Shown: positions 17,246-51,200 of the stretch, one piece after another
Position numbering within the stretch: position 1 is the first letter of the stretch
Layout of the letters: every line of letters starts with the position of its first letter
Assembly: GCA_030765585.1 (NCBI GenBank)
Contig: JAVCCJ010000121.1
Coordinates: 7,233 to 71,232 of the forward strand
Length of the DNA: 64,000 bases
Direction of reading: 5' to 3'
DNA from: Candidatus Zapsychrus exili
GTDB taxonomy: Bacteria; Omnitrophota; Gorgyraeia; Zapsychrales; Zapsychraceae
Made by a program: the position numbers and the translations under genes
Notes under the pieces: model-generated
Database searches by the model: none
The model's input: only the letters and a program-made list of their open reading frames with translations
What the model was told of the DNA's origin: nothing

Positions 17246-17296
17246 GAGTTTAGTTTAAGTACTAAGGTTTAAACTTTATTTAGGAGGATATAAAAG

Positions 17297-18289: not shown

Positions 18290-18305
18290 GAATAGGTAAA
18301 GAATT

Positions 18306-18647: not shown

Positions 18648-18684
18648 GGTAAAAGTTAAAACATAAAGGATAAAGGTACATAAA

Positions 18685-24990: not shown

Positions 24991-25848
24991 ATGTTAGTTT
25001 TTGTATTATTTTTAATATTTTGTACTGCATGTATTTTTGGATATGCCATTGTACCGCATCTCTACAAACACGCCACTGTAATACAAGAGAAAAGAGAACA
25101 AAAGTATTCAATCCAGATGGAGCAGGTGCTTACTCGTGCAGAAGCAAGAAAGATGAGTCGGCTTTTTGTTTTTGCTCCACTTGTTTTATCTGCAGGTCTT
25201 TACTTTTTAGTACCTGCTGAGATAAGGATTTTTGCTGTTGCATTTGGCGTTGTTATTGGGCTTTTGATTCCTGGCATGTATGTTAAATCGATGGCTGATA
25301 GGGCAAGGCGTAAATTTCAATTTCAGCTTGTAGACGGGTTGATGATTATGTCTAGTTCTTTTAGAGGTGGTTTAAGTTTGATGCAGGCAATGGAGGCTGT
25401 TGTTGAGGAAATGCCTGATCCAATTAATAGAGAATTCGGAACAGTTTTAGGTGAAAACAAAATGGGTGTTTCTTTAGACGATGCTTTAAATCATCTTGAA
25501 AGGCGCATGCCTTCTGTCGCGCTTCGCCAGATGATCACTGCCGTTTTGCTTGCTCGTGAAACAGGTGGTAATTTGCCTGTTATTTTTACCCGTATTGCAA
25601 ATAATATTCGCGAAAACAGAAAGATTCAACAAAATATAGATACGTTGACCATTCAGGGTAAAATTCAGGGTGTAGTAATGACGCTTTTGCCTTTTGCTTT
25701 TGCTAGTATTGTTTTCTCGGCGAATAAACAGATATTTTTAAATATGTTTGAGTCTGAGTTAGGACGAATGATGTTAATTTATGCTGCTATCTCAAATATT
25801 ATTGGCGCATTTATGATTTGGAAAATTAGTAGTTTTAAGGACTTTTAA
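24991..25848 (+). CDS. tadB: Tad pilus inner-membrane platform protein TadB (T2SS-F family)
   Basis: Polytopic. GspF-like block FRGGLSLMQAMEAVVEEMPDPINREF...ALRQMITAVLLARETGGNLPVIF. Confidence 0.8.
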   Translation: MLVFVLFLIFCTACIFGYAIVPHLYKHATVIQEKREQKYSIQMEQVLTRAEARKMSRLFVFAPLVLSAGLYFLVPAEIRIFAVAFGVVIGLLIPGMYVKSMADRARRKFQFQLVDGLMIMSSSFRGGLSLMQAMEAVVEEMPDPINREFGTVLGENKMGVSLDDALNHLERRMPSVALRQMITAVLLARETGGNLPVIFTRIANNIRENRKIQQNIDTLTIQGKIQGVVMTLLPFAFASIVFSANKQIFLNMFESELGRMMLIYAAISNIIGAFMIWKISSFKDF

Positions 25849-25860
25849 TAAGAGGAAAAT

Positions 25861-26754
25861 ATGTTAGAACTAATTTTAGCCCTAGTGTTTACATTTGCTT
25901 ACCTTTCAGGGTTTTTCTTTATTTTGGCAGTTATCCCTATTCAATGGGATTATCGTCCGACTTTAAATGTTGCTGGTATTGGCGATGAGAAATCTCTTAG
26001 GCAAAAAAAGAAAAAGACACCATTTCATTTCTTAAGAAGTGTGGCTTTAATAAATAAGCCAATATGTCTTGGTGCATTAAGGGCAAGAATTGAAAAAGAT
26101 TTAGCAATAGCACACGTTAACATGACAGCAGAGGAGTTTCTTTTTATTAAGGAAGTTGGAATCTTTTTAATGCTTTTTCTTACATATCCAGTAGTTGCTT
26201 CTGATTTTGTTATGTTCTGGGGGATTATGTGTGTTGCGTTAGGATACATGATTCCTGAATTTTGGCTTAAAGGTAAAATTAAAACTTCTAAAGCCACAAT
26301 AATTAAAGAACTTCCTGATGCAATTGATTTGCTCGGACTTTGCGTTAATGCTGGACTTGATTTTATGCTTGCATTAAGATGGGTTGTTGAAAAGTCTCCG
26401 CCATCAGTTATGACCGACGAGCTAAACACAATATTGCAAGAAATTAGCGTTGGTAAGACGCGTAGGGATGCTATTAGAGATTTGTCTTACCGTTACCAAT
26501 TGCCTGATTTGTCTACTTTTGCTAGAACTTTAATCCAAGCAGATAAAATGGGAACTTCGGTTAGTGAAGCGCTGAATATGCTCTCAGAAGATATGCGTAT
26601 TGCGCGCTACAGACGAGGTGAACAGCTAGCATTAAAAGCCCCATTAAAACTTCTTGTGCCGCTTCTTTTCTTTATCTTTCCGGTTGTAGGTATTCTTGTT
26701 GCTGGACCGATATTGCTCGATTTTATCGAGAACAATCCTTTCGCTGCGCATTAA
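25861..26754 (+). CDS. tadC: Tad pilus inner-membrane platform protein TadC (T2SS-F family)
   Basis: ELPDAIDLLGLCVNAGLDFMLAL...TFARTLIQADKMGTSVSEAL is the GspF-domain signature. Confidence 0.8.
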   Translation: MLELILALVFTFAYLSGFFFILAVIPIQWDYRPTLNVAGIGDEKSLRQKKKKTPFHFLRSVALINKPICLGALRARIEKDLAIAHVNMTAEEFLFIKEVGIFLMLFLTYPVVASDFVMFWGIMCVALGYMIPEFWLKGKIKTSKATIIKELPDAIDLLGLCVNAGLDFMLALRWVVEKSPPSVMTDELNTILQEISVGKTRRDAIRDLSYRYQLPDLSTFARTLIQADKMGTSVSEALNMLSEDMRIARYRRGEQLALKAPLKLLVPLLFFIFPVVGILVAGPILLDFIENNPFAAH

Positions 26755-26859
26755 AACAAAGATAAAAATAGTAGATAGTAGTTTGTAGCTAGTACAACTG
26801 TCCCTCTGTGGACTATCCCTCTGTTCTGGATTTTTATTAATTATTGAATTTGATACATG

Positions 26860-27135: not shown

Positions 27136-27140
27136 TTCTT

Positions 27141-28010: not shown

Positions 28011-28247
28011 TTATTAGAGTTTTTAACAAAGAATCGATTGCCCCAATTGTTCCGCGGGGCAACTGGGGCAACTATTATTGTACTAAAAATGTGATAGCGC
28101 TGCAAGTAGAAATTTTAAAAAATGTTAGGGAAATAGGTGAGGGGCAGGTGAGGGTCAGACCCTTGTATTTTTGTCCCTTAGGTTTTCAGTGTTTTTAAGA
28201 GACAAGGTAGCGGCTACCTTTGGCGTGTTGGATGTTTTGTGCTAATG

Positions 28248-28730: not shown

Positions 28731-29055
28731 TTATTTGTCATTAGGTTAGTAGGCCGCATCAAGTGTTGGATGACAAAAGAGGGTGGATAGGCTAGGGTTT
28801 ATCCCTATGTTTCTAAATGCTGCCATTATTAATGTCCAATCTGATTATGCTTTGTAACAAGAAGGTAGGACCATCCTGAGCAAAGCTAAGGATGACTTTT
28901 TTGTCATTTTTGCCTAGGGTCTGACCCTCGTACTTATAAATCAGATTGCTGGGCCGCTCGCCTCTGCGAAGCTTTACGGTTTCGCTACAGCGAAGCAGGG
29001 CAAATTCACATACATGACCTATTGAAATACTTGATGTAATCATAGAAGCATCAAG

Positions 29056-29314
29056 CGCAAATTTCTGCCTACCGGTAGTGTACTACTTCACAATTTTGGT
29101 AACACTTTAAAATTATTTAATAATTTTTTTTCCTTCTCCCCTTTGGGGAGAAGGCCTGTCTTTCTTTAGGAAGACAGAGATGAGGGGTAAGAATAAAAGC
29201 CCCTCACCTTAACCCTCTCCCCAAAGGGGAGAGGGAAAATTTCTTTTTGAAATCAATTATTTCTTCTACTAATTTGTTACCAAAATAGTGAAGAATTACA
29301 CGGTAGGTAGGCAC
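29056..29314. mobile_element. MITE-like foldback element (~260 bp) with ~40-bp imperfect terminal inverted repeats and two internal perfect hairpins
   Basis: Left end ctgcctaccggtagtgtactacttcacaattttggtaaca. Right end tgttaccaaaatagtgaagaattacacggtaggtaggcac (reverse-complement match ~80%). Internal hairpins ccttctcccctttggggagaagg and ccctctccccaaaggggagaggg. Central palindrome ctgtctttctttaggaagacag. Confidence 0.45.
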
Positions 29315-29476
29315 ACAGGCTAAGTTAATGTTCGCCTTGTCAATAAGTTGGCTTCATAAGTTAGGTGCTCGTTTAATGTCCAATCTGAGGGTTTAAAGCA
29401 AGTTTGAGTAATTTGTTGGAATGCTAGCTAAAGGGTTTGTTTTAAATGAGTTAAGATAAGAATTTTAAGCAAGATA

Positions 29477-29680
29477 AATGTCCAATCTGACTCTGTTTTG
29501 TGGCAAGAAAACAGAGTCATTTTGAGCGAAGCGAAGGATCTCTAAGGTGATTGTCATCTACGCAGGTATTTTTGTCTATTGGGCAGGTAGTGTGGCAAAG
29601 GGACAGGCGAGTAGAGGGATAAATCTCCGACTGTCCCTCTATGTTGCGGGACAGACGAGGGTCTGACCCTCCTGTTTTAG
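29477..29680. repeat. One member of a dispersed repeat family beginning AATGTCCAATCTGA; other starts at 13706, 28841, 29376
   Basis: Identical 14-mer at four places. The 28841 and 29477 copies share ~60 further bp (..ttgt..caagaa...gagcRaagcKaaggat..). All lie in intergenic space. Confidence 0.5.
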
Positions 29681-30254
29681 GCTGGAGCCTGACTCTTTTT
29701 GGGTTTTTGAGCAGAAAAATAGTAGTTTTTGAGGTAAAATGGACAGTTTTTGACAAGAAATAGGTTGTTTTTGATAAAAATGGATGTCATTGGATGAAAA
29801 TAAGTGATTTGGGCTAATATTTGGAGCTCAATAGCCTAAAAACTAGAAAAAATGGGAAATTTGTCAAGTGCTTGCCAAAAAAATATTTTTTTTAATGCTT
29901 TTGGACCCCCAAAAGGGGCTGAGTTGATGATCATTTTTTTGCTAGAATTGTGGCAATTTCTTTATTAGAACTATTATATTTCTCGTCGAGATTCTCATAA
30001 ATTGCTTAAAATTTTTTGCTTGACAAAATATTTATAATAAATATAATACTTAGTATTAATAATATAAAAAAAGCGCTTTCTTAAAACTTGCAAGAAAGGT
30101 CCTTTTATTGTCTCGACGAGGAAACGTATAAAAATTCAAGGAAATTAATAAAACATCAATTGTGTATTGTAACTCCTTTGTTTTCAACTAGTTAGAATAT
30201 AAAAAAAATATCTTCTGACCTTGTTGCAATACAATAATATGCTATACTTTCAAT

Positions 30255-33200
30255 ATGAAATCAGCCGCGGAACAAAATAGAGAGCCAGAAGATGATAGAA
30301 AAGCCGACAGCTCAATTGGCAATATGAGCGAGAATACGGCTTTTACTCATCAACATTCTTATGTTCCTACCAATAGGACTTTCTTAAACTCTGAAGATTG
30401 TTCTGCTGATGCTCAAAATATTTCAAATACCCAACCACAAGAAGAACCAATTCCACATAAATCACGCTTTAAATCTTGGATTAAGACAGTTGCATTAATA
30501 ATAATATTGGTTTTTGTTCCTGAGCAAATTAGTTGGGCATTTAGCTATAATCCTCTTGTACTTTGGAAAGATAAGGCTACTGTTGCTTCACAGTATCTTG
30601 GTGATGGAAATACTATTGCAGCAGAGAACCAAATGACAGAAGAGCAAATAGTCTCTTTACGTGTGTCAGAAAGTGTTAGCCATTTTTTAAAACAACTTCA
30701 AAACAAAAATGCTCAACAAATACAATTACAACTTCCAAATCCACACAAATCAAAGCTAGTTAAGGATAATCAATATAATATATTAATTAATACTGATTTG
30801 GCTTTTAATGAGTCAAATATTGCTGAAATTGCAACTTGGTTAAGAGAACCTGCAATTCACCCATTAAATTGTGGCGTTTATGCTCTTAATGATATCCTTG
30901 CTAATTATGATGTTAAATTAAGTCTAGAAGAAATCTCAGTTATGTCTCTTTTAGTTGATTTAATCAACGATATCGTTCGCCCTGGCGAACCAAAGCTTAA
31001 AACATCTCTTTACGCGATAAACAAGATTACAGAAGCATACGGAATTAACTTAAAAGCAGCAAAGCTTGCACCAGCTGATATTTTTGATTTAGAGCCACCT
31101 TTTATCGCTAATTTTGATGATGAGCATTTTGTGACTGTTACAAAAGTAGACGATACAAGCGTTTATTACAATGATATAGGTCGCGCGTCATCAAGTTCAA
31201 GATTAGATTTCTTAGACCAAGTAACAGGTTTTGTTTTAGCTCCTGAGCTAGAAGCTCAAGATGATGTAAAATTTGAGTATGTCCCTGATGCAATGCAGGC
31301 ATTTATTTGGGGTTCAAAATGGCATGGTAATCTTGATAATCTTCCAGGATTGTACAGCTGGGGAGATGTTGCTATTGGAGCTGCTTTTCAAGTTGTTGGT
31401 CTTTTTACCGGTGGTCTTGCTAGTAGCGTATTAAGTTTAGGTGCAGGTAGTTTTCTAGGTTCTCTTACAACAGCTATTGCTTTAAGTGAGTGTTATGATG
31501 CAGAAACTGGTGCGGCAGATCAGGGTTGTTTAGATACAATGTTTGTTTTAAATATTGTAGGAACTTCAGCAATATCAGCCGGCAGTGGCGCATTAAATGC
31601 TGATAGCTTTGATTTAGGCGCTTTCGCAGGAGACTTTGCTAAAGGCGCTGTTGTTGGGCTTGGACAAGGGTTGATTATGCTTTATGTAGGTAAATTGCTT
31701 AATGATTTACTTGAAGATTGGGATGCGCCTGATGCTCTAAAACAAGCAATTATTGGCGCGGTTTCATCTGTTGTAGCAACAACTGCAATGGGCTTAGTTG
31801 TAGATGGCCTAGACGCTGCTCTTAAAGAAATGGGTGTCGGAGAAGGCGCTAAAGTTGATTTGTCTTTAAAGAGCGTATATGCCGGAGACACACAGGTAAA
31901 GGTAGAGCCCGAATGGGCAGTTTGGAAAGCAACGGCTATGGGTAACGTTTTATCCGGCTTAAACAAGGTTGTAACATTTATAGGAAAATATACTGGAATT
32001 TCATGGGCGTTAAATCAACTTAATAAAGGCTGGAACAAGCTAGTAAAGGGCATGATAGGCTCAAATTCAGGAGCTGCAAAAACTTTAACTGCTACAGGAA
32101 AAGCTTTTAACGGCATAAAAAAGGGAGTTAATTATGCGCTAAACGGAAAGTTTAGTCCAGTAACTTATGTAATCAAAGCTCTTGCGGTTATTCCAAGAAC
32201 TGTTAGAAATCTTATGTCTGAAGGTAAAAAGGTTTGGGGAGTAAAGCATCTAGTTTTTGCATTAGAACAACATAATTTTTTAAGACAAATGACAGTGTTG
32301 GCAGTTAGATACATTTTATCAGAAGGTAAAATTCTTGGAATTGATGATGGCAATAAAGAAAATAATGGAGATGATGGAGAAGACCGCGGAATAGCATTTG
32401 ATTCATTCCTTTCTCAAGCAATAGGCATGGGCGTTGGTATGTTTTATGATCATGTTTCTATTGGATTAGATAATCGTGATAATTTAACTAAAAGAACGGA
32501 AAATGAAATTGCACAAAAGAAAGCAGAGGCAGAAGGGTTAGATAAAAACGATCCAGAATATGGTGATTTTATACAGAACAATATTGTCTCAATGACAGGT
32601 ATGTCTTTAGAGGATATTTTCGCTAAACGAGCAGAGTTTGGTTTAAGCGAAAACAGTGATTTTGCTCAATACCAAGGAAAAAGAACTTCTGCTTTTATAG
32701 CAATACTTGGAAAGTCGGTAGCCTCAGTATTATTAGCTAAACATTATGATAAAAAGGAATGTGCAAGAGTAGATTGTAATGAAACTGAAAGACTTGGAGA
32801 AGACCCGAATAGAGATCGCATAGGCTTGCTTAAGTTCAGGGCAACGCAGTTTCTTATAGGCGGACTTATTGAGGGCGGAATTGCTATTTTAACTGAAAGT
32901 AATAGAAGGCCAGATGGTGCTGAGCTTACTCAAACAGATAAAAAAGTAGAGCTTGATAAAAAGATAATTAATAAATTAGCTAATAAAGATGCAGATAAAC
33001 TCGAGAATGCTTTAAATACAAGCATGATGTTAGTAAATGAAAAAGGAGAATTGATAGATAATCTTAATGCTACAGAGAAAACATCTAATGAAATGCTTCT
33101 AGCAGCAAAGAAAAAATATGAACAAGCTTATAGTGAAGGCGGCGGAGCAAATGGAGAAGGCATTGAGAAAGTTTTAGCAGCAGCAGGATTGTCAAAGAAA

Positions 33201-36200
33201 GAGTCAAAAGAATATTTGAAACAACGCGCGAAAGAATTAGATAAAACTAATGATGTTTCTAAGCTTTTCTTATTATTTAATGGCAACTTTGTAGCTAAAA
33301 CTATTCAATCGATGTATTCCGCTAATGGCAACAGTCCATATGGAATAGTTGGATATGATGATGGTGTTGCTGTTTATGATCAAAGAGGATTTGTAAGAGC
33401 TGATGAGGATGCATCGCCTACAGAAAAATTAATTTCAAGCATAGCTGCTCGTTCTTCCTATATTAATGAAATGGTTGGTATGTATGGAGGAATGACTCTT
33501 ACAAAGAGATTAATGGTAAGAGAGCAAAATGAAAAAATGGAAGCAGATATGCGCAGAACTAATGAAGTCTCATCAGCTGCTCCTATATCTGAAGAAGAGC
33601 TTGCGCGTCAAATAGGCGCTGCTCAGATGAGAGCAAATGTTAAAACATTAGATGTAATACATAATAGTAACAATTATTTCTTAGATGCGATCAATCAGTC
33701 CTTAGCAACAGCATTATTCTCACCTCAAGATAGCCCTATTTTACACGCACTTGATTCTTTAGCATTTGATTTTGTTGATGCATCAATAGAGCAACAAGCA
33801 CAGGCTGCCTGGGAAGATGAGAGTAAAAAACCAGATACAAATAAATTAGCATTTCTTCAAAACAAACGTCAAGAGCTTCGCGATGAGGTAGCAATGAATT
33901 CTGATGACAAGTTTGGTTATTCGCCATCTGATTCTGTAGATGTATCAATAGAACAACAAGCACAGGATGCTTGGGCAAAAGAGGGCAAAAAGCCAGATAC
34001 AAATAAACTAGAATTCCTTCAAAACAAACGCAAAGAGCTTCACGAAGAGGCAGCAATGAATTCTCCATGGTTAGGCTTGGGTATGGATTATAGATATCTT
34101 GCTAGCGAACAAATAGGCGAGGGAATAGATAGCAATAAAATTACTTATAAAATGAGTGAGAATTTAGTATTTAATTCAGGCAAGGGTATTTTGCTAGGAA
34201 CATCTCTTGAAAAGAAGGGTGATCTTTTAGAATATGGTTTAGAAAAGTTAAATGTTTATTATCAGGATGAAGTTGGTAAAGGAGATTATATTGGTGAAGG
34301 CTCTGATCGTGATTTTAGCGGAACAATAGTTAGAGATATTTCTGGCTTAAGCGAAATAGACAGAAGAGAATTAGGTTTTGATCCAGAAAAGATGAAAATT
34401 GCGACTGAAAATGATGGAGATAAAGAAATAGTTGCAGTAGGACTTGCACAAAAACTTAGACAAACAGATAGAAAAGAAGACGTATCTGCTCTTAATGAAG
34501 AGAAAAAGGGCAAAATCATTACTAAAATAGATGGTACAACACGTCTTGTTTTTGGTTATGAAGCAGAGCATTTAGCAGAACAAGGCAAGAAATATGATAT
34601 GACAGTTGATGTTGGTAAGTTTACTGTTAATGAAGAAACAGGCGACAGAATTCATTTATCAGCTCAGAGACAAGCTGCTCCTGATGCACAACTTTCAGAT
34701 AGTTGGGTAGTTACGCGACAAGATTTTAATGCAGCAACACCAAAAGATATAACAGCTACTACAATGTTTTTTGCTTCTCAGGGGGAAGTTATAGATGAGC
34801 AAGGCAATGTATTAGAACAGTATGTTGCTAGCATTAGTTCTGAAGATTGTGTTACAGGTTGCACAGATCCTAAAAAAACCTGGTATGTTAATCGTTCTCT
34901 TTTTGCAAAAGAAGGTGATAAAAAAATAAGTGATATGGATGATCTTGGTTTTGATACAAATCTTAAGACTTTTGCGAATAAAGATGTAAAAACAGAAATA
35001 GCAGCTCTTAAAAAAGATTATAAAAGAATTGATGATTCTACAGAAAAAGATGAGAACCGTTTAGCTGTAGTTAATACAATTATTGATCATGCAATTGAGG
35101 ATAAAGAGTCAAATCAAATCGCAAAAGAGCTTTATGGTTTCGCAAAGATGGTTGAAGAACATAAAGTAGCATCATCTCTTGAAATTGGAGCTTATACCAA
35201 TAATAAGGAAGGCTCTAACCAAGAAGGAGAAGAATTATATCTTGGAATAGCAAGATACAACACAGATGATAAGGGTAATGTAAAAGATACTTCAACAGTT
35301 CTTATTAGTGAACCTCAAATATATGATAAAAATGGCGCTGTTGCAACGACTAATTTTATTTATCAAACAGAACAAACAAGCGCTTTTAATGTGGGTGATT
35401 CTGCAGTTTATGGAAAAGTTGTTGATGGTAAAGAAACACTTGTTAGTGCAGAAGAAATAGATACATATAAAGATAAAAAAGGAATAAAGGGAGATGTTAA
35501 ATCAATTGCTGTTGTTCGTCAGGTAGCAAAAGGCGATATAGATCTTTCTAGCGCAGTTGAAATGGCAAAAGGCTTTGATAAAGATGGAGTTGATAAGTTT
35601 GGAGATACGCCAGAGAATTTTAATGGCAAAGATTATATGAGTTTTGTTGCTGCTTCAACAGAAGATGGCCAGACAGCTGTTTTAGAAGCAAGCAAATCTA
35701 AACTAGTTCAAGGATATTCTGAGATTAAAAGTTCAGTTAAAGTTCATTATGATCATGATTCTTATAAATTAGAAGCAAAAGCCAAAAAAGATTTAGATAG
35801 TGCAGCAGCAACATTAAATGATAACGATCAAAAAAATATCATTATAAATGGAAGAACAGATTCGTCAGGTACAAATCAATACAATGTGAAGTTAAGTTTA
35901 AATCGTGCGCTTGCAGCAAAAGATTATTTAATGGAGCAAGGTATATCAGAAGATAGAATAATAATTCGCGCTCTTGGAGAAGGAGAAGCTGATCAAAGTA
36001 TTGCTGAAAGCATCCGTTCTGATAAAGAGATTGGTCGTAAAGATAGAAATAGTTCTTTTGAGATAGTAGAGAAATCGCCTCTGGGAGATTCTAAGATTAC
36101 TTTTAGGGTAGATAAAGAAGGCTTTGTTAAGAGAGCTAGCACAAATTTCTATACCGCAGGGTTGGATAACGAGGGTAGCAGTATTGTTTATGATTTAGCT

Positions 36201-39200
36201 CCTAAAGCAAGTCTATTAGCTGATGCTCTTATACTTTTAGCAGCAGATGTTGCAGATGCTTTAGGACCTGAAGAAAATAAAATTCAAGAAATTGTGACTT
36301 CAAACGCTACAAGCGCTAAGGCAGCACAATTAGATGGAGCATTAGTTGCTATCGTCCCTGATATAAGAGCATACGAGCTTGGTAAAAACGATCTTCTTCA
36401 CATAGTAGATGGAGAGATAATTGCGCCTAACGAAATTCGTTTTGATGATTATGCTCCAGATCCTACATCTACTCCTAAAAGAGATTCAAAAGGTAATGTT
36501 GTTGCTGGTTCGTTTATAAAAGATACTGTTGCAACTAAACAAGGCGATGGAACATATGCATATTCAAGCGCAGATGGAAAAGTTGGTAAAGCAGCTTCGT
36601 TAACCGTAGATCAGTTAGTTGTAACTAAGTTTGGAGTAGTTGGTGTTGATGAAGCAGCAATTGTATCAGATAAGCCATTAATATTAGGGAACAATAGCCA
36701 ATGGTTAGCATCTTCTTCTGATGCAACACTTGAAGTTGCTTTTGGTAGCAAAACAACACAAGCGCTTGATAGCAAAGGTAATATTGTCGGGCCAGTAGAA
36801 GAAGTTAATTATAACGGCGGATATCGCATTGATGAGAGTAAGGCTATTGTTTTAAGAAGCAAGGTTGGAGAAGGCGCATTATTAGGTTCTATTTATATAA
36901 ATAATGAAGGGGCTCCAAAGGTTCTTGATAAAGAAGCTTTTGAAGAGGAGTCTTTAGAAGACAATAAAAAATATGTTAGCGCAACTACACAATCAGAAAC
37001 TGTTGGATCGTTAAGTGTTGCAGGAATTTCAACAGAATCTAAATGGACCGCAACTCCTGTTGTCGACGGGAAAATTAATAAATATGCAGCTGATGAAGAT
37101 GGTGTTTTAGAGTCTGCTTTAGTTGGAAACAGAATAGTTTCTCTTCATGGAAATGCTAAAGAAAACAATATGACATTTAAGGATATGAAAGATAAGGCAA
37201 ACGTAGGCTTTATTTCTAAGAGTGGACGCATGATTCTTACTCCTAATAATAATAATATTTCTGGTGGATGGTCTAAAGATGCAAATGATCAATTAAGTTT
37301 TAATGTAGGGATAAAAGATACTAAGAAAATGAATGGTAGTGAAGAGGGCAAAGGCACAGCATTAGGACTACAGCAAGAGAATGTTCTTGTTTACAACAAA
37401 GGAATTGGCAATATTCTCTATCAAGGTTCAGAGCAGACCAGCGTTGATCCTGTAACAGGTCTTGTAGGAGCAAATCGTTTTGTAACAATGAACTTAACAG
37501 GTGATATGGGCGTAAATCAAGGAACTGTTTTAGCTTCTAAGGTTGATTTAGCACAGGGAAATATTGAAGGACAGGTAAGAAACCATAAAGATTTAGATGC
37601 TCCGAGCATATTTAGCGCTAAATTAAATACTTTTGATATCAAGGATAGTGAGATTATTTTAAAGGTTTCACAAGAACTCGGTGATGTTTCGCAATTACCG
37701 GTTGCTGCTGATTTTGCTTACTCTAAAGAAGGAAAGGGTGAAGCACCAGTACAAACCCCTGCAAATTTAGCCGCTTTAAAAGGTGTTGAAAATAATCCAA
37801 ATGTTTTAATGCTTGAGGTAAGTAAAGAAGCCGGCCAAGATCTTACAAAAGTCTTAGGAACACCAACAAGTAGCGTTCTTAATTTCGCATTTTCTACAGA
37901 TGGACTTAAATTTAATCCAAAGGCAGAAGGTTCTGTTTATTCTAATTTTGATCGTGTTTCTGTATTGTCAGGAGTTGAAGCCCCTACTGTGATACTTAAA
38001 AGAGAAGCAACGCCGACAGAATCAAATTCAACCCCAGCTATTCAATTTATAGCAGATGCTAATAATAATGTTAAGATGCAGTGGAAAGGTATTTGGAATA
38101 TACAAAGAGATAGCGCATATACAAATCATTCAACTAAGTGGATGAGCGCCGATGGAAAATCAGAAGCTCCACTAGTGCTTAATACTACAATAATAGGAGA
38201 AGAAATAACTGCAAGTGCTGGATGGAATGATACTGCAGTATGGAATTGGGCTGCAGGCGCACCTAAAATGCGGGGAACAATAACAGATAAAGATGGTAAT
38301 TCTGTAAGTAGCTTAGGAATACAAAGAGTAGATGGCGCAGGTGCAGGTTGGACGATACAAGCTCGTGGTAGCAAAGATGGAAGTACTCTTGTTGCACCAA
38401 ATCACGTTAATGTTGAAGAAAATGGTTATGTTGATCCAGATGCTAAAAAAGATGTAGATAAAACAGTATCTAATAAATTTTTCAAATTACCTCAAGCTCA
38501 AAGCTATGATGTTTATAAGGATGGAAGCAGAGAAGATGGTTTAGTCGAAGTTAGATTGAACCAAGGCTTCCCAGAAGGCGTTGAAACACCAGCAGATTTT
38601 GAGATTAAAAGCGGTCAAAGCATTAATTTACTTGTTCAAGACCATGATGGATTATCTTCTGTATCAACAACTGAGAATATGGTTGGTACTGATGTAAGGA
38701 AGATGATTTATCATGCAAAAGCTCCAGAACAAGAAAAGGCTGCTGTTGAGAAAGAAGTATCTGAGCAAGAGACAGATTTGAATAAGTTTTCTATGCCAAT
38801 AGAAAATTTTGTTGCTAAACAAGACAATACTCGTTTAGCCAAGGTTAATATTCCAGTAATAATTGATAATTTTATCACACCAGAGCCTAATGTAGATAAA
38901 ATCACAGTTCAAGAATGGAGAGTAGAACGTGCTCCAGAGACTATGGTAGTAGAAAATCCTTACAGCGTATTAACTTTGGATGGTAGTCGAGCAATAGAGC
39001 GCGATGTATGGGGCAGTAAAGTAGGTACCATACCTATTAAAGAAACAGTTTCTTTTGAGCCAGGAGATTATCAATCATTTGGCGATGTCAATAAAACTGT
39101 ACTTATTACAAAGACTGCAGCGACTTCGTACAATATTGATTATTCTAATTCAGATAAAATTACTGCAACAAAATCAAGTGAAGGTCTTAATTTCGTTGAT

Positions 39201-42200
39201 TATAGCGGAGAAATGTCTTTTATAAAAGGAAGAACCTCTAAAGAAATAGAACAGATAAAAGAAAATGATATAACAGAGTGGTTTCCTAATGCAACAGAAG
39301 GCAAAGAAAAAGTTAGCGTACAAATGGACTCAGATGCGATTACGTCAGAGGCGATGCAAATTAAGCGTTATGATCCAAAAACAGGCGCTCATGTTACTGA
39401 CAGATATCTTGCAGGCATGACAGCAATAAAGGGAAATGACGGAATAATTAGATCACAATTTACTACAGAAGCTAGTTTGTATAATGCTGATACTAAAGAA
39501 ATTGGTAATGCAGGTAATTTATTATATGATGCTGCAGCATCTTTCTTGCTAGATTCTGTTGAAACAGATAAAGGTAAAAAGGCAGTATTTAAATTTGTTC
39601 CAGAAGGGCAAGATCCAACTGTTTTTACTGCCACATCTAAGGGAGGCATAGAAACAGTTAATACGATCTATACAGACCCTGCCACGATTAAAGAGGCTAA
39701 TGAGGCAAATTCATCAGGTGCTTTATTGCCAGAAGCTATAGCGCAAACTTTAGATCCTAACAATACTGGTTCAATTCAAAGAGTTTATCAATATCAGGGC
39801 AAGAAGCTTGTTAATGAATATTTTGCTGTTACGAGAGCTAAAGAAGACAGTAGTAAGGTAGAAAAATTTTATGTAGACGGTAAATATGCTAATCCAAATA
39901 ATGCAAATGAATTAAAATCTCTTATTGCAAGCGAATTAAATCTTGATTTAAAAGAAACCAAGACTTCAACATTACAAGATTTTTCGTATTCTAAAACAAT
40001 AGAAGATGATGCCGAGGTAGTGTATGTTTCTCCTCAAGGAAAAGTTTACTTAAGGATGGTAACAGGCAGAACTATTATAGAAACACCAAATAGTTATTCT
40101 AGTTCATCAACTTCTACTAGCGAGCAACATGATGTTTTTGCCTATGATCTTGTAACAGGCGATGTTGAAGAAGTAGATGTAGAGAAGACTTTTGTAGATG
40201 TTGTTACTGATAAAGATGGTGCTAAGAGATATGCACTTAAATATCTTGTTCCTGAGAGTAGAACACGATATTCGATAGGATTGCCTATTTCGTATAAGCC
40301 TGCTGGCGTACAAGGCATAGAATTTAAAGATGAAGATGGAAAAGAAATTTGGGCTGATATCAATTATATAAAATCAGGCCAATTAAATGGCGTAGGAGAA
40401 GAAAAACAGTTTGTCGCTGTAAGTATTCAAGATGCAGGATGGTCTAAAAACAAAAGAAACAGAATAATTGATTTAAGCACCGGTCGTGAAATTACAAGAG
40501 AAGGTTTTATTGAAACACCAGAAGGCGGAAAATGGGACTTAAATAGATATAAAGGCAAAATAGTTGAAATGGTTAAGGCTAAAGGTTTCTGGGGAGACGT
40601 AGGAGATGTTGCTTGGAATGGTCTTAGAGGAGAAGGAAAAGAAACTTATGTGAAGAATATGTTGATGGATTGGGGCATGTCTTATGCTTCAGCCGGGGCA
40701 TTAGATGTTTCTAACCCAAGTGTTGCAGGAGTTGTAACAACCGCTCTTATGTTTACTGGCGTAGGTTCAGGACTTGGGCTTATAGGTAAGGGTGCTAAAG
40801 CAGGTTCTACAGCTGCTAGGGTTTATTCGATATCGCGAGCAGCTTTAAAGACAGGCCTTATATTCGGAGGAATAGATACCGCAGCATATGTTGGAATAGG
40901 AGCGCTTACTGGACAAGATTTAAACTTTTCAGATGGACTTGCAGCTTTTGCAGGTGGGGTTAAGATGGGCGCTACTATGACTCTTGGTATAACTGGATTA
41001 GGAGCTGTCAGCGGAAGAATCGCTAATTCTATTAATGCTGTTAATGGTGTTGCTGGCACTGGTAAAGGATTTAAATTTGTTAGTAAGACATATAAAGGTT
41101 TTGGAAAAATGGCAGAATGGAAGCAAGCAGCAATTTTAAATGGTTCATCTGGTGCAGCAGTTAATGTTACGCGCGGTATGGTTGCAAATTATTATGAAAA
41201 TGGTGGAGAATTAGATTATAGCTTGAGATCTTTTGCAATAGATGCAACAGCTGGAGCTATTATTAGCGTAGCATTAGGCGGCGTTGGATCAAAAGTGATG
41301 AAAGGATCGTTTAACACTAAACAATTGCTTGGTAACAATATGATTCATTATGGTTTAGTTGGTTTAGGTGGCGAAACTGTTTCAACAGGAATATTTAGCG
41401 ACAAGGAAATGACATGGACAAGAGCAGCAGGAAGTTTTGCTATGGGCGCTATTGGTGGATTAGTCTTTAGATCGACATGGATTCCAGAGATGATGGGTGT
41501 TAAACCTGCTGAAATTATAGGTGAAACAGCTAAAGTAACAGAAGGAGTAACAGAAGGAGCTACAAGTTTATTTAGAAATATTAAGAATCCATTGAAGCTT
41601 ACAAAAGCTGCTCAAGGTGTAGAATCTGGCGCAACCGTTCTTAATTTCTCTAAATTACGAACAATAGGAACTTTAACTGGTTTAGGTGTAGGCGCAGGCG
41701 CAGGTATGGCAGCTATGGATGCTAGAGTTCATGCTAAACAAGATGCAAGAAAAGCGGGATTCAAAGAAGGAACTAAAGCATTTGATTCTTTTGTTTCAAA
41801 GGAAACTAGTAATAATTTTAGGAGTTGGAAAACAGCAAAATACATGGGTGCAGGCGCACTAGCTGCAAACGTAATGTTCTTTGGAAGAAGAGCGATACAG
41901 ATGAAAGGCAGAGCAAAACTTTTAGGCACACATAGCAATAAGCGCATTACGCTTCCTCTTATTGCTGATGAACCTCATTTAATTGCAAGCCTATCTTTAT
42001 TAGGAGCTGCGGATTTTGCAATGATCATGCCAGCTTGGGGTGCACTAGATTCAGTTATATATACAGGATTAACCGGTGGAAATCTAGAAGAAGGTTTTTA
42101 TCATTCGTTCCAGCAAAAAGATGTTGATGGAAACGATTTGGGTGTTTTTAGCAATTTAGCTGTTCATTCTATTGGTGGTGCAAAATTAGGTGCTCGCTTA

Positions 42201-45200
42201 GGACCTGTTTTAGGTATTGCTCAAATGCCTCTTTCAGCTTTAGGTAAAAAATCAGCGTTAGCACCAAAGAGTATTTCAAAATTTTCTGCCAATAAATCTA
42301 GCGGTTTGAGTATTTCAAAAATCTTAAGTAGTCCAACTGCGCATAGTATGCCAGTAACTGTAGCTCAATTAGCTACTGTTGAAGTCTTAGCTGAAAAAGT
42401 ATTAGAAAATACATATTTTAAAACAGCTGCAGAAAATAAAGCTGATACTCTTTATAACTCGCATTTAGAAGAAACAAAGATAATGACTGGCGCATATCCT
42501 ACAACAACAAAGGCGCAGTTTAGAGAAGAATATGCTAAGAATAAAATAAAAGAAGATGCGGGACAAATAGCTTTTGCTTCACTTTTATTTAAGCCAAGTT
42601 CGATGCCTGGAGCAGAACCAGAAACAGGTGGTAAAGGAAATAAAGGATCTACAGCAGAGGCAAAAATAGAAACACCTCCCAACAAACCTTCTGACAACGC
42701 ACTCTCTGCGGATGCACAAATTAAATTATCAACTAAGCAAACAAATATAGATCAAGCACCAGTTGCTAAGCCAGAGAAATCGATGCTTTCTCGCATGACT
42801 ACCGCTGTTGATTATATCGGTTCTAAGTTCAAAGGTCATAATAATAACATACTAAGACAAAAAATAGGAACGCAATCTTTAGAACAGAATGTTATTATCA
42901 CAAGTTCTTCTAAACAATATGTTAAGGCGGCAAAAGAAGCGAGACGCAGAGGCACAGAATCAAAAGATAAAGAATACAGAGATTTAGATGAAATAGATCA
43001 AGTATTTAATATGTCAATGGATAGCTTAAGGGAGAGCATTGAAGCAGACGGAAGAACAAAATTTAAAGTAAAACCGAAACAATTAGCTCTTGTGTATTCA
43101 GTTATAGAACATGCAATTAAGGGAGAGAAGCTGTTGGCAATAGAGCCTGTTAGTGGCGGTAAAACAGTTTTAACAGCAGCTATTGTTGATTCTTTAGCTA
43201 AAAAAGGCAAAACAGTTGTTGTTATTGTACCGTCAGGTAAACTTGTAGATCAATATATGAATAGTGCTCTTTTCGAGAATGGCAGATTTACAACTCCTCA
43301 GACTCGCAATAATGGCAAAGATGCTGTTCCTGAGGCTTTAAAAAAGGGAATGGTTTATTTTATGACTGATGCTCAAGCTAAAGATTTTGTTCTTCATAAG
43401 AATAAAACAGGAGAAAACTTTTTTAAAGATGCACAAGGATTTTATGATGAAGCTCATAATCTTTTTACTATGTCAGACAAAATTATAGGCGGCGGTTCAG
43501 AGCGAGCCGCAAAGATTGTCGCAGAGAATTCTTCTCAAGCAAAGAGACTGCAAAGACAATATGATACAGATACGGAACTTGCTAGAATAACTGTTGATTT
43601 GGTTAGAGAAGTTGGCGGAGAAGTTGAATATTTAGTTGAGAATAAGAATTCAGACAGAATGTCACATCAATTTAAAGAGCAGGCAACTTATAGAAACGGT
43701 AAGAATGTTTGGGCTGTTAAAGACGCTAATGGAAAATTAAGCATTGTTAAGAAAGGTACAGCAGGAGCAGAGATTTTAAGACCAAAAGATATTGTTTTAG
43801 AGAGATTTAATAAGTCTGTTAAAGAGAAGAAATTAATAAGATTTAAATCAGATCATTCAAAAGCTTTGCTCGAAGATTTTGCAGGTTTAGCTAAGTCAGC
43901 TTTTCAAGAAGCTAGAATAAGGACAAAAAATAAACAGGGAAATCTAGAATCTGCTCCTTTAGATGCTTATACAGGCGAAGCACGTTGGGGTGAAATTTTT
44001 AGCGATCCTACAGGAAGAAATACAAAGGCAAGGGCTCTTGTTGCATTAGAAAGAGTACTTGCTCTTGAACGAGAAGGAAATGTTAATCTAGAATCGTATA
44101 TTAAAAGCGCCATTAATAGTACAGAACATAAAGCTCGTGGTGCTGATTTCTTAGATATGTTTGATAATGTGACTTTATTGACTGGTACTGCTGGTGAGGT
44201 AAAAGGTATGGCCAAAATGAAGAATATTAATATGGTTCAGTTTAGACCAGAGTATACATTAAAAGACATAGGACCTGAGAATGTGACTTTTGAGACTTCA
44301 GGAAAGTCTAAGATCGATATGATAGTAGACATTATTAGAGATGAAATTAATTTAGCTAAGAAAGCAGGCGATAATTTTGTATTGATTACTACTAATTCAA
44401 GGGAAGCAGGCGTATTGGGCGCTAGAAAAGCGCGTCAAACACAAAACCTTAAAGATAAGGGTTACAAAGTAGAGTATGTTTCTGATGCAAAATTAGCTGA
44501 GAGAATAAAAGAGATTAATAATTCTAATGCTAAAGAAAAGATTGTTATTGTTACCCAGGTAATTGAAGGCATTTCGGTTGAAGCTAAGGGTTCTGGTGTT
44601 GTGATGGAGACAGCTGTGCTCTCTGCGGCAGATACTACGCAAGCCCTAGCTCGTATGAACACATTTGCAGAGGCAAAGGATTCTTCGAGAACAAAGGCTA
44701 AAGCTAAGGTTAAATTACATATAGATGATCACTTAATCTTAACGGCAGAAAAACAAAAAATACTTGAAGCCCAGGGAAAACTTGATCAAGCAAGAAAAAC
44801 TAATAGCTCTGATGCAATAAAGAATGCCGAAGCCAATCTAGATTTAATTTGGAGAGAGATGATGCACTCTCTAACAGAATTTAAAACAAATCAAGGCCTA
44901 GCCACTATAAGTACAACGGTTGTAGAAGGGGTTAAAAGTAAAGTAGCAAAAGAGTCGGTACAACAGCAATTGAGATCAACAACACATGGCATTTTATCTG
45001 ATATAAGACAGGAAGCTCATAAAGACATTGCATTAGATTATATGAACAAAACAGGCAAAACATCTGCACAAATATCTTTGTCTGATAATAAAGGATTTGA
45101 AATATTTTCATCAAGCAAAGAAGGTGACGAGATATCAGTTGATAATATAAATAATGTTGGGCTTGTAGCAACAGAAGAAATAGAATTAATCCACGGAGCA

Positions 45201-48200
45201 AAATTAAAAGCTGGGCAAACATTAGATTATGAAACTGGATTTGTCTATGAAGCGCCACAAAATGAATTTGATATAAAAGATTTTAGTCAAATAAAGAGCG
45301 AGTATCTTCCTGTTGGCGTTATTAGTATAACAAGAGAAGATGTAAATAATCCTAAAGCTAACTATAATCCTGTTGTTAATACAGTTGTAAATGGAAAAAA
45401 GGCAGCAGCAATTGAGCTTTCTGATTTGGGTAAAAATACCTTGTTAGATAGACAAATAGTATATGCAGAAAACAGTGATGGCAAGATTGATCAAGTAGCT
45501 TATAGGGTTAAGCCAATCATCTCCAATGTAACAGTAGGAGCAGCTTTAAGTGCAATTAATATTAATGATGATTCTTATGAAATAGATAATGATGGATTTG
45601 CTATTGTTCCTATAGAAACATTTAATAAAGCTTTTAGCAAAGAAAATGCTCTAGATAATAGCGTATTTGATGGCATAGGCTTTAAGTTTGCGCAAGATAT
45701 AACAATACATGAAGGTTTTAAAGAAAAACGTTCAGACGCGATTACTGGTAGAACTAGAAAATCAAAGAATAAAGTTGCGAAAGATGCATTAAAACTATCA
45801 ATTCAAAAAACAGTAGAAACTCCAGAAATAGCTATTGCATTGCCTGACGGTCAAGGTGGCACAAAAACACAAAGAATTAAAATGGATGATTTAAGAGAAC
45901 TGCAAACTCGTATGGCAAGTTCTAAATCACCTGACTCAGACGTTAATCTTTATTTTGCTGATTATGATTCAGAAGAGTCTAAGGCAAAAACTAATAAAGC
46001 ATTAAACAATTTAGTTAGATTTTCAAATCCAACAACACAAGATGACAAAGATTGGGTTGCAAGTCTAAATACAGAAGAAGTGGTTCATTATGATACAGCA
46101 GCTAAATCATTAAAAACACGCGGCATATCTCCAGTTGAATTTGCTATGCGTTTTCAACATCAAATGGGTGGAAAGAATTTTGGCGGACATACTGGTTCTG
46201 GCGGTCAAGATGCATTAGGCAATAAGAGGGATCAACAAAACGTATATGTTAATGAATCAGCTACACATATTTTTGATTACTATCAAGACATAGAACGAGA
46301 CAAAGGATTTGAAGCTGCTAGTGATACTGAAAAGATGATGGAAACAGTTCTTCATGAGCAAATAGGTTTTGCTAATAGAGATTTTTCTCATTATCAAAAC
46401 GTTGAGGTTCGTCGTGTATGGTTAAAGGCAACTGAAGCTGTGAAGCAAATGAAAGAAAACAATGTAGATACAGTAGAGCTTCAATTAGTTGATGGATCAG
46501 GTTATGAAATTTACGAAGCTATTAAAGAAAACGGTAAGACAATTGGTGCGCAACCTATAAAATTAGTTGCACAAAATTCGGACGTTAAATTACGTCATTT
46601 AAACACAACACTAGCAAAAGGCGAAACACTAGATTATAAGGCATCATCTAAAACAGCATCATTGGATACTGGAAGCATTAAATATAAAAGTGTCGATAAT
46701 CAAGAAGACAAAATAGTATCAAAATTAAAAGTAGGACAAGATATTGTAAATATTACAGATCCTAATTTAAATGGACATACAAAACTTGCTCAAAGAGCAG
46801 TAGCTGATGTTGAGGATGCTGCTAGTATTTTAAACAAGATTGATTTATCTTTAAATGGAACAAGAAAAGAATTTGCGTTAGACAGACATATAAAGACTAT
46901 TGAGCAGTTAAGAAATACAAACAATGTATTTATTTCTAAAAATGCTGGCGCTATGAGTACTGATGACGGAAGAATGATTGTTGGAAGACTTGATAACAAC
47001 AATAATAGACTTGTATTAAATTCAGAGGCTAATGGAGAAATGGCTGATATTTATTTAAGAGGACAGAAAATAGTTGAGAACGTTCCTTTAAGAGTAGCTG
47101 CCATTATTAGTGAAGTAGATAGAAAACATGATGCAGGATTTGAAGTATACAAAGCTAAAAATGATGCACCAGCACAATCTAAAGCATCTGACAACGCATT
47201 AACTGCTGATACATTCCACCCTGCAAACATCACAACAAGAAAACAAATTCAAGGTATGATGCGCGATGGTGTTGATCAAGCACTTATGACATTAAGAGCT
47301 GGTGGATATGATTCTAAAGCTAAAATAATGAATTTTACAAAAGCTAATTTACCTGATAGCTTCAACAAACGTGTTAAAGATTTTGCAATGCGCGCTCGCG
47401 TTCGTGCAACAACAGCAAGAGAAAGAGCTCAAAAGGATACATTTGGTTCTGTAATTCATGCTTCTTCAGGTCGTGTTAGTACATTAGAATGGGGACTTCA
47501 CGAAGCAGGATATAAAACAGACGAAGCAATGGTTGCAAAAATAGCTGATATCGTTGCAGGCGACCCACGTAGAGTAGAAGGTGATATTGCAGTTTATGAT
47601 TTTAGTGATGTTAAAGGCACTACAAGATTAGACAATTATGAACTCCATGTAGATACAACTCGTAATTTTGATGATAAATCAATGCTTTCAATATTTGCAG
47701 ACGCTCCACAAGGTCAAACAATTGCATGGTTAGGTGAAAATATTGCTGTTGTAAATACAGATATATCAGTTGGTGGCGAAAGCGAACTTGCACGCAGCTG
47801 GTCAAAGATAGAGAAAAAATTAGGAAATCAAAATTTTGATGAGCAATTAGCAATGGTAATGCAATTTGATATTATCGATCTTAATAAGTTAGTTGCTTTA
47901 GCTGTTGAAGATGCTAATACAGAAGAAGCCATACTTGCTCGCGCTAAAGGTTTAAGTGTTGATGCTCCAATTTATGTAGCTGTTATGCGTGACGAATGGG
48001 TATTCTTTGCAGTTGTAGATGGCAAGCTTGTAGGCGAGCCACAAAAAGCAGAAGATATTTCTAACGGACTTGTGTTAATGTCTAAGGAAAGCATTCCAGG
48101 ACATGTTGTAGCTAAGTTTAGCGAAAAATATGTTGTTGCTCAATCTGTTCTTAATCCAGAAACTAGCATACCTACAGCGCTTGGAAAAGGCCAGTGGGCA

Positions 48201-51200
48201 CCTATTGAAGGTCAATTAGCGTCTATGAGCGCTACTGCAATGCTGTCAGTTGTTCCAAGCGTTGCTAAGCATGAAAAGATTGTTGTTGTTCAATCTGATG
48301 CAGGACAAGCAGAGAAAACAGCCATAGAGTTTGCTCTTGCAATACCAGAGAAACAAATTTATGTAGTTAATCATACAAAGACAAATCAATGGTTCGTTAA
48401 AGTTACAGTAGCGGATGGTGAAGCTAATATATCCAATGTATTTATTACAGCTGATAAGCTAGAAAATGGCGTTGTGGTTGTTGATGCTGCAATGTTGTCA
48501 GAAGCTGCATTTGATATACTTCGCGCAAATGGCGCAATAATAAGCAAAGCTGCAATGCCAGATAGTTTTGGTGGCGAAGATAATGTTAGCGCAAAAGCAG
48601 TTAAAGCAGTATTCAATACAGACTACAGACAAAAGACCATAGACCAAAGACTAAAAACAAAAGAAGCAGCAGAAGAACCAGTAATTGTCGTTCCTGTTGC
48701 TCCTCGCAATGACGCAATTGATATGCCAGCAATGGTTCCTGCTGCAACAATACCTGTTACTGTTCCGATGCTTATGAGCAGTGGCGTAGGCGATAATAGT
48801 CCTAATGTAGAGCTTGCTGATGCTGCAATGACAAGTGGTCCTGGAAATAACAGCCCTAATTACAAAGATATAATAGCTAAGAGTGAAGAGCTGATAGCTG
48901 ATAGTGAAAAGACAATAGCGATTAGTCAAAAGATAAGAGCTGCAAGTGAAGAGATAAGAGCAAATAGCAGAGCGATAAGGAAAAAGATTGCTACGTCAGG
49001 TTCTGACGATGCAATGTTAGCGGCAGCAAAAACAGACGATATTATGCAATATCTGCCTTATGATCGCAAGATTGAAAATGATGTCTTAGTCAAAATGAAA
49101 CAAGATGTCGGTAGAATAGTAGATATCATAAATGAAACAAATAGAAAGATTGAACCTGAGTTTAGCGTAAGAGACGATCAAGTTAAAATGGCTGAAGCCT
49201 TGATAGAGGGTAAGGTTGTTGTTGCTGAAAATGCTGCTGGTAAAACACTTGCTAAATTTATTGCAGGACTTGCAAATATAGTGAATGGTCGTCAGGCAAC
49301 TATTTTAACTCGTGATGAAAACGATAGTGCTAAGTGGATATTAGAAGCTCCAGAAGAAGGGTTCGGAGCAAATTATAGCCAAATGTTAGCTGCTACAATG
49401 AAGGAATATGAACTTGAAAGTTCTGGTATCGTAGACTTAGATGGTTTAATGAAGAGATATGATGATGCGCTTAAGAAAAGAAGAACAATTGTAGCTAATA
49501 AAGAAATTAATGAAATAAAGGGACAGATATTAAGAGCATTACAATCTAAAGATATGTTAAAGATTGTTTCAATCAATGCTCGTGGTCATATGCCGAACAG
49601 ATTCCTTGATGATGATTTAATTTTACAAGGTATTAAATCAATCAAGGATGACGGCGATACTATTTTAGATGAGGCAGACGACCTTCTTCTACTTGAAACT
49701 ACATATATCCAATCACAATCACAATCTGTTAAGAAGAATAGTAATTTACGCAAGATTGTATCACAAGCCAAGAAAATATTTGATCAAGTTAAAATAGGCA
49801 CAGACGAAGAAGATGCTATAAAAGTTGCTGCATCAATTCAAGACTTCGAAAAGCTTAATAAAGCAAATAAGAAAGCTGTTTGGTATAGTCAAGGTTCAGG
49901 TTTAATTGGTGCACCAGACTTGCTTATTTCTGATGCTGTTTATGAAAGTTTTAAAGAAGGTACATTGCCTACTATGATTGAAGGCGTTATTAGAGGAAAG
50001 ATAGAAGAAATAGGCACAAGACTTGCAGCAGATCTTAATAAGGGCGAACTTGTTCCAGTAACTCGTACTGGTGAACTTCAAAGCGATATGATCTTTAGCC
50101 AAATACCATACAAGGTAGCTCAAACGCTTAAGATTAATGAAATACTAAAAGCTCGTGGAGATAGTCAACTTAAACTAAACAATATTACTGTTACAGGTGA
50201 TACTGTTCGTGAGAATCCTATATCAGAAATGCTTCAAGGAAAAGGTAGAGTTGTTGGTGCAACTGCTAATAAGGCGGGTGCTGAGTATATTATACAAGCT
50301 AAGACAGGTTCAACAGAAGGTATAGTTACTATTGGAGAAGAAAGTAATGTCTTTAAACAAGCAGCTCTTCCAACAAAGAATTATCGTCATGTTGATATTA
50401 CAGGACAAGCAGGCGGGCTAGTTGATCAGCTAGCTTCTATGGCAGAAAAATCACTTGCCGATAATAAAGGTACGTTGATATTTACATCAGATCATGTTCA
50501 GTTACGTAAGATAGCTGAAGACTTAAAGAAGAGATTTCCTAATACAGAAGTTGGCGTTATTGACGAAGATACAAAGCCAGAACAAATAGAAAAGTATAGA
50601 AATGAAATAGGAACTCATAAAGGCAACTCTACTCCACGTATTGTTGTATCTCTTCCACGTGTTGCTAAGCAGGTTAGTTTTAAGGGTAATTTAGATGTAA
50701 TAGTTTCTGATGGTGCAAGTTGGCCAAAGGCTGATCTTACTCATGCTGTTAACAGAAACAACAGAAGCGAGAAGCTTGAATTAAGATTAGGTCGCTCTTA
50801 TGTATTAGTAGACAAAGAAGCTTTAAATAAGAAATTTGAATTTGTTCGCAATCTTGTGCCAGAAATAAAGGGCTTAAGCAAAGCGGATGATGTAAATAAA
50901 TTAGTTGATGAAATAGAAAAAGCAGGCGCTGGCGATACTTTAGCATTGTCTAAAAAACATAGACTAGTTGCTGAATTCTTACAAGCACAACAACGTTCAA
51001 GCTCACACAAGCATACTATACTTACTTTATTTAGAAACAATCGTCAAACTGAGCCAATGCAAGATCTTTATGATTCAAGAGTTGGTTCAGATAAAAAGAT
51101 TGTACAAGAAATTCTGTTTAAGGAACGTGCAGGTCTTTATGGAAACACAATGCAAAAACTTCATGATAATCCATTTACCGGCGAAGAATGGGTAAGGGAA

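Follow-up and report, generated by a model that had tools for sequence, protein, structure and literature searches.

Giant proteins of the bacterial phylum Omnitrophota have been described in two preprints, both of which note secretion and pilus genes beside the giant genes (West-Roberts 2023, 10.1101/2023.11.21.568195; bioRxiv 10.64898/2026.06.07.730766). In the passages of these accounts that deal with the N-termini, C39 domains are placed near predicted signal peptides and are suggested to cleave the giant proteins (West-Roberts 2023), and an architecture cluster defined by PF03412, with 24 proteins, is the largest such cluster (bioRxiv 10.64898/2026.06.07.730766). The domain is presented there as a Pfam match together with speculation about cleavage. 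Whether a giant protein stays a single polypeptide or is cut into pieces is a question raised in these papers, and the C39 module is the enzyme that one would first suspect of the cutting. Here we describe this module in a stretch of 64,000 nucleotides from Candidatus Zapsychrus exili (assembly GCA_030765585.1, contig JAVCCJ010000121.1, positions 7,233 to 71,232; hereafter the window), where it lies near the N-terminus of a giant open reading frame (ORF) of 9,925 aa.

The giant protein resembles those in the published passages in several ways. It comes from the same phylum (its homologues and their loci are almost all from Omnitrophota metagenome-assembled genomes, or MAGs), its C39 domain is N-terminal and near a predicted signal peptide, and it has DEAD/SecA-like modules, many transmembrane segments and adjoining type II/Tad secretion genes. 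It differs in its size, which at 9.9 kaa is low for the range, and in carrying OmpA, M23 and SLT domains. Pfam found Peptidase_C39, OmpA, ResIII/DEAD, Peptidase_M23 and SLT in the ORF, and its 48 overlapping hydropathy peaks merge to roughly 25-30 hydrophobic segments. A multi-transmembrane protein of several thousand residues with a DEAD/ResIII domain and Tad genes upstream agrees with the published description of the proteins that bear this module, and we conclude that it is an Omnitrophota membrane or envelope protein with C39 as its N-terminal module. Since the domain was already known in such proteins, its identification here was to be expected and the locus adds another case. What our analysis adds to those passages is the conservation of the catalytic triad, the loss of a Gln residue, an extension of ~75 aa, a hydrophobic core fixed at 11 residues with a PEQxSWA motif, and linkage to TadB/TadC in 52/52 loci.

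The domain is a genuine, papain-like cysteine peptidase domain of the C39 family, and we are nearly certain of both fold and family. The only Pfam match of hmmscan in the region was Peptidase_C39 (PF03412; aa 205-328, E 1.4e-9), which scored 38.3 bits against a gathering cutoff of 22 and covered model positions 12-126 of 133. The sole NCBIfam match was to the peptidase end of the bacteriocin exporter model TIGR03796, at 20.6 bits versus a whole-protein cutoff of 853, and PF03412 had a precomputed match in 32/32 close homologues. Structural comparison was needed because sequence searches of the PDB were weak: a single-sequence phmmer search returned spurious weak matches only, and the family profile reached LahT150 at E 0.1 only. 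An AlphaFold2 model built on 33 sequences had a block-mean predicted local distance difference test score (pLDDT) >90 over most of aa 130-350, with a confidently folded unit at ~aa 129-350 (30639-31304). The best 20 Foldseek matches in the PDB were all C39 or C39-like domains, with target-normalised template modelling (TM) scores of 0.67-0.74, and they included LahT150 (6MPZ), PCAT1, ComA, 3B79 and the C39-like domain of HlyB. The structures closest to the predicted papain-like fold were the C39 domains of ABC transporters, that is, the peptidase domains of PCAT/AMS exporters.

An earlier note on this DNA, made from its letters and ORF translations, had proposed a C39-like cysteine-peptidase fold at 30790-31200 (aa 179-315), to be checked by hmmscan and by structural comparison with ABC-transporter C39 domains. 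Both analyses bore the fold out. The interval spans most of the domain, although the Pfam match extends to aa 328 (31238). The motifs that the note listed, CGVYAL, SLEEIS (aa 223-228) and HFVTVTKVDDTSVYYNDIG, are all in the translation, but its CG-x-A-L is really CG-x-x-A-L, and three residues, not two, separate the second Asp from VYY after the HFVTV motif. These one-residue slips in spacing do not affect the conclusion. The catalytic Cys and His positions that it claimed were found in CGVYAL (Cys206) and in HFVTVTKVDDTSVYYNDIG (His291), both aligned to LahT150.

Conservation of these residues was assessed in a family alignment of 163 members (32 word-index matches, 130 cluster representatives and the giant protein itself) on the family profile. 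Cys206 was kept in 152/156 sequences, the other 4 having Ser, and His291 in 149/152. At position 307, the third residue of the triad, Asp was present in 125/150, with Glu in 13 and Asn in 6 of the others. When the profile was aligned to LahT150, each of the three residues (Cys, His and Asp) fell on its counterpart; YYNDIG around Asp307 is matched with YINDPAK, and the His-to-Asp spacing is 16 in both. In the model Cys206 opens the helix at 206-217, as a papain-like nucleophile should. Because the giant protein has only nine Cys in its 9,925 residues, the retention of Cys206 is conspicuous. The domain is likely to be an enzyme because its triad is under such strong conservation, and, on its residues, we consider it very probably catalytically competent.

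The earlier note had left the choice between a processing protease and a non-catalytic scaffold, and it is the protease that is favoured by the conserved Cys, His and Asp at His+16. In RTX type I systems such as HlyB (3ZUA), C39-like domains without the catalytic Cys serve as substrate-binding chaperones, and a domain of that sort would here hold on to an unfolded stretch, whether of the giant protein or of a partner, and cut nothing. The loss of Cys that defines HlyB-type domains is not present in this family, in which Cys206 is conserved, and an inert scaffold is unlikely because the whole triad is kept (~97% Cys, ~98% His, 83-92% Asp), a degree of conservation that is hard to explain without catalysis. 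We therefore regard the chaperone explanation as very unlikely.

The region ahead of the domain suggests that it is exported. A basic cluster (a median of 3 K/R in the family) is followed by an uncharged hydrophobic core, whose length among 142 members is 11 residues at the 10th percentile, the median and the 90th percentile alike, and by a motif with the family form P-E-Q-x-[S/A]-[W/Q]-A. Of this motif, 139/142 members have Pro89 and 141/142 have Gln91; S or A stands at -3 in 138/142, and A at -1 likewise in 138/142. A stretch of 11 residues is short for a stable transmembrane helix and typical of the h-region of a signal peptide, and the small residues at -3 and -1 of PEQISWA fit a signal peptidase I site, after which the protein would be cleaved. 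Given the variable N-tail in front of it, the segment, which we call signal-peptide-like, may be a cleaved extended signal peptide or an uncleaved signal-anchor. The N-terminal membrane anchor placed before the domain by the earlier note was correct in so far as a hydrophobic segment precedes it, but with its short core and PEQx[S/A][W/Q]A that segment resembles a signal peptide more than it does a stable anchor. With either kind of segment the C39 domain is predicted to be on the periplasmic side of the membrane, and we hold this extracytoplasmic location to be probable. It is consistent with the C39 domains near predicted signal peptides in the earlier account (West-Roberts 2023).

The module has a constant order: variable N-tail, basic cluster, 11-residue core, PEQxSWA, FNYNP, the ~75-aa extension, the C39 core and a hydrophobic helix cluster. 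The FSYNPLVLW segment directly after the putative cleavage site was disordered in the model (pLDDT <50 for aa 94-121), and its Tyr98 is kept in 135/142 members. The extension was modelled as a helix (129-147), two strands (155-159 and 175-179) and a second helix (186-197), with block-mean pLDDT of 73-95 over aa 131-200 and most blocks >90. Its Trp195 is near-invariant (154/156), and aa 127-205 searched alone had no Pfam match. After the C39 core, the motif AFIWGSKWHGNLDNLPGL leads into the first hydrophobic helix cluster, for which the model has helices at 369-385, 390-413 and 423-448; this cluster would tether the C39 domain to the membrane.

These features set the module apart from the PCAT/AMS exporters (LahT150, 6MPZ; PCAT1, 4RY2 and 6V9Z; ComA, 5XE8), to which its identity is about 20-23%. 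In those proteins the C39 domain is cytoplasmic and fused to an ABC transporter, in the order C39, six-helix ABC membrane domain and ABC ATPase. The C39 domain of the giant protein is predicted to be periplasmic, with a signal-like segment ahead of it, is not fused to such a transporter, lacks Gln at Cys-6, has an extra N-terminal subdomain and has no evident substrate with a double-glycine leader. The domain could still be a cytoplasmic gatekeeper like that of a PCAT, recognising a cargo, stripping off its leader and passing the cargo on for translocation through the transmembrane clusters of the giant protein, with the DEAD/SecA-like ATPase modules of that protein as the motor, which would mirror the logic of peptidase, membrane domain and ATPase in bacteriocin exporters. 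The nearest structures are indeed PCAT/AMS peptidase domains, hydrophobic clusters and a ResIII/DEAD ATPase module are on the same polypeptide, and in the published passages SecA-like domains are proposed to export giant or accessory proteins (West-Roberts 2023, 10.1101/2023.11.21.568195). However, the basic cluster before the first hydrophobic segment, with an acidic or neutral flank and the AXA-like motif after it, predicts export; Pfam found neither ABC_membrane nor ABC_tran across the 9,925 aa; and no gene for a double-glycine cargo was found in the window. On balance a cytoplasmic gatekeeper is unlikely.

With moderate confidence, we favour the reading that this is an active, membrane-tethered C39 peptidase module with the role of a processing protease, which is the most likely role that we infer for it. 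A Sec signal peptide or signal-anchor would export the N-terminal module, and the peptidase would fold in the periplasm, at the surface of the inner membrane, where the helices that come after it would keep it. It would then cut polypeptide exposed in the periplasm after small residues. The likeliest substrates would be segments of the giant protein itself, so that the OmpA-like, M23 and SLT cell-wall modules are cut free and either act in the periplasm or leave via the Tad-like machine; partner proteins of that machine are the alternative. Self-processing is the most economical idea and agrees with the speculation in the published passages; we regard it as possible and put it forward tentatively. 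That domains of periplasmic type (OmpA, M23 and SLT) share the polypeptide with C39 was counted in favour of a processing protease. In another explanation, the domain is a cell-wall (iso)peptidase that works beside M23 and SLT on the stems or cross-links of peptidoglycan or pseudomurein, of a prey or of the cell itself, and processes no protein; we think this quite unlikely. A functional analogy for the processing protease may be found in LapG/LapA, in which a periplasmic cysteine protease releases a giant adhesin: there, too, the target of a periplasmic Cys-His-Asp protease is the N-terminal part of a very large protein at the cell surface. LapG, however, is a separate protein of another family (transglutaminase-like, C93), whereas Pfam gave Peptidase_C39 alone for the region studied here.

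Several observations weigh against an exported processing protease. In canonical C39 enzymes (ComA, PCAT1) a Gln at Cys-6 forms the oxyanion hole; it is missing here, where the residue is Ala200, and across the family alignment the position is either lost (53 gaps) or changes from member to member (E, D, N, S, G and others). With the -1 Ala at median residue 66 in the family, the hydrophobic core has a long N-tail ahead of it, an atypical trait for a cleaved signal peptide, and the positive-inside count of the loops after the domain points clearly to neither side. A substrate was sought among double-glycine motifs in the giant protein and among small ORFs of the window, and none was identified. 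Leader-like motifs (GG/GA/GS) were not enriched in the giant protein relative to shuffled sequences (5 vs 4.1+-2.0; 6 vs 4.0+-1.9), and the 377 small ORFs of the window held no convincing double-glycine leader. Nine regex matches among those ORFs were rejected as hydrophobic segments of pilins or antisense junk. Within 100 residues of the giant protein (aa 8416-8513; 55500-55793) we also observed the three motifs VEVVSSVAGGF, VEVVSSVAGDF and VVVDSVAGGL, which are loosely like a double-glycine site (hydrophobic -4/-7, GG at -2/-1) and were not seen in the homologues at hand.

The family is large and its genomic setting is constant. A profile search of 1.84 billion cluster representatives found 875 relatives at E<=1e-3. 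At E<=1e-30 there were 207, and many of these are proteins of 3,000-7,800 aa that carry the module N-terminally. When one genome per GTDB species was scanned, 69 loci were obtained, almost all in Omnitrophota MAGs, with some labelled "uncultured Planctomycetales" and one Elusimicrobia. Two apparent stand-alone modules were set aside as evidence of a separate gene: P0027 (745 aa) ends in what appears to be a chimeric contig end, and P0006 lies within a string of short same-strand ORFs that resembles a frameshifted giant gene. In 52/52 loci with >=4 kb of sequence before the family gene, this gene comes next after a same-strand TadB/TadC-like T2SSF pair, at a median gap of about 850 bp, and the pair is usually preceded by homologues of the 1,077-aa and 556-aa proteins of the window and by a small pilin. 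In the window the operon runs from RcpC/CpaB through a secretin, a fused ParA-like/T2SSE ATPase, DUF192, ~nine Flp-type pilins and two large pilin-like proteins to TadB, TadC and the giant gene.

This setting bears on whether the domain matures the Tad-type pilins or pseudopilins encoded upstream, in place of the prepilin peptidase TadV (A24). The giant gene is always downstream of TadB/TadC, the window encodes ~nine Flp-like pilins with a (G/A)|Q-x-x-x-E-Y site, and no Peptidase_A24 match was found among the scanned window ORFs of >=100 aa. Against this, prepilin leaders are cut at the cytoplasmic face and the C39 domain is predicted to be exported, P2 at the pilin sites is Lys and not Gly, and a TadV gene may sit elsewhere in the genome; we consider a pilin peptidase extremely unlikely.

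Export of the C39 domain is probable, and its tie to a Tad-type operon is constant. In a broader, rather doubtful proposal, a Sec-exported, periplasm-facing C39 maturation protease would be an obligatory part of the Omnitrophota Tad-like operon and would cut the giant polyprotein, threaded through the membrane, at sites in the periplasm. The M50/site-2-protease-like region of a HEIGH motif (aa 7626) might take part in the cutting, and the cell-wall-degrading modules would be exported via the operon's secretin. If true, this would be a polyprotein-processing system for the delivery of effectors, and all characterised C39 peptidases would work across the membrane from this one. The fragment aa 96-350 is small and expressible, and bears on whether giant proteins are cut.

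Table 1. Features of the module, the giant protein and its surroundings. Positions are in the window, or in the giant protein where marked aa.
Feature	Position	Strand	Basis or remark
Giant ORF, 9,925 aa, carries C39 domain	30255..60032	+	ORF list and translation
Signal-peptide-like segment	30456..30539	+	Family alignment and composition
Basic cluster HKSRFKSWIK	aa 68-77		Part of signal-like segment
11-residue uncharged hydrophobic core TVALIIILVFV	aa 78-88		Part of signal-like segment
PEQISWA, small residues at -3 and -1	aa 89-95		Family motif P-E-Q-x-[S/A]-[W/Q]-A
FSYNPLVLW, directly after putative cleavage site	30540..30566	+	Family consensus FNYNPxVLW
Family-specific N-terminal extension, aa 129-200	30639..30854	+	AlphaFold2 and family alignment
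C39 peptidase core, aa 201-330	30855..31244	+	
Catalytic Cys206 (TGT), N-terminus of helix 206-217	30870..30872	+	Aligns with LECG Cys of LahT150; AlphaFold2 helix
Asp235, invariant in family	30957..30959	+	156/156 in family alignment
Catalytic His291 (CAT), motif E-H-F, within HFVTVTKVDDTSVYYNDIG	31125..31127	+	Aligns with NHFVV of LahT150
Third triad residue Asp307 (GAT), within HFVTVTKVDDTSVYYNDIG	31173..31175	+	His+16
Post-domain motif AFIWGSKWHGNLDNLPGL, leads into first hydrophobic helix cluster	31299..31352	+	Consensus AFVWGxxWxDxSxxLPGL
Gly-rich cluster of about 5 hydrophobic helices, aa 369-517	31359..31805	+	Hydropathy
OmpA-like domain of giant protein	aa 1832-1911		Pfam
ResIII/DEAD domain of giant protein	aa 4270-4406		Pfam
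Peptidase_M23 domain of giant protein	aa 9468-9571		Pfam
SLT domain of giant protein	aa 9624-9717		Pfam
Two T2SSF (TadB/TadC-like) genes, invariant upstream neighbours	24991..26754	+	Pfam T2SSF
~Nine Flp/Tad-type pilin genes	16295-19014 and 24386-24730		(G/A)|Q-x-x-x-E-Y processing motif, e.g. KKG|QSTVEY
Secretin with C-terminal TonB_C	9201-11087		
ATPase, ParA/TadZ-like domain fused to T2SSE/TadA domain	11115-13274		
Separate PilZ-T2SSE gene	2711-4114		
DUF1016_N+SNase gene in TadC-to-giant-gene gap	27141-28010	reverse	
73-nt direct repeat	28245 and 28655		85% identical
66-nt repeat	28828 and 29474		
27-nt inverted repeat	29128/29213		93% complementary

Other parts of the giant protein also drew our attention. 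The HEIGH motif (53130-53144; ~aa 7626) lies within a hydrophobic helix cluster (52932-53591; aa 7560-7779), and the region matched Peptidase_M50 (site-2 protease) below threshold, at 22.5 bits versus a cutoff of 27.2 (E 8e-5); it may be a second, intramembrane protease of the same polypeptide. A second Walker-A/DEAD-like pair (AENAAGKT ... LDEADDLL), seen by eye in the translation at ~aa 6100-6400 (window ~48500-49500), resembles the SecA-like modules published for Omnitrophota giant proteins and was unreported by Pfam at E<=0.01. Six of the nine Cys form three close pairs (aa 413/425, 836/841 and 1532/1536), which may be disulphides or metal sites. Cys413 and Cys425 are in a loop between hydrophobic helices, and a possible periplasmic disulphide there would be weak support for export because the two residues are kept in only about half of the homologues.

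The end of the giant ORF was also unusual, as its last ~40 residues resemble out-of-frame junk (window 59880-64000). A second frame stays open from 59909 onwards and runs off the end of the window after 1,364 aa, and the two would be joined by a single additional A in the run TATAAAATAG (near 59905). The giant protein is probably longer than 11,000 aa, reading on past this frameshift, whose cause is an indel from sequencing or else a real -1 shift. Pfam found nothing significant in the frame downstream of 59909.

Upstream, the Tad-type machinery (8223-13274) has unusual fusions, and Rfam had no match in the window. From TadC to the giant gene there is a gap of 3.5 kb (26755-30254), versus the median of ~0.85 kb in the 52 related loci. 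Besides the reverse-strand DUF1016_N+SNase gene, it holds ~2.2 kb without a convincing ORF, in which the repeats listed in Table 1 lie, and its content looks like an insertion.
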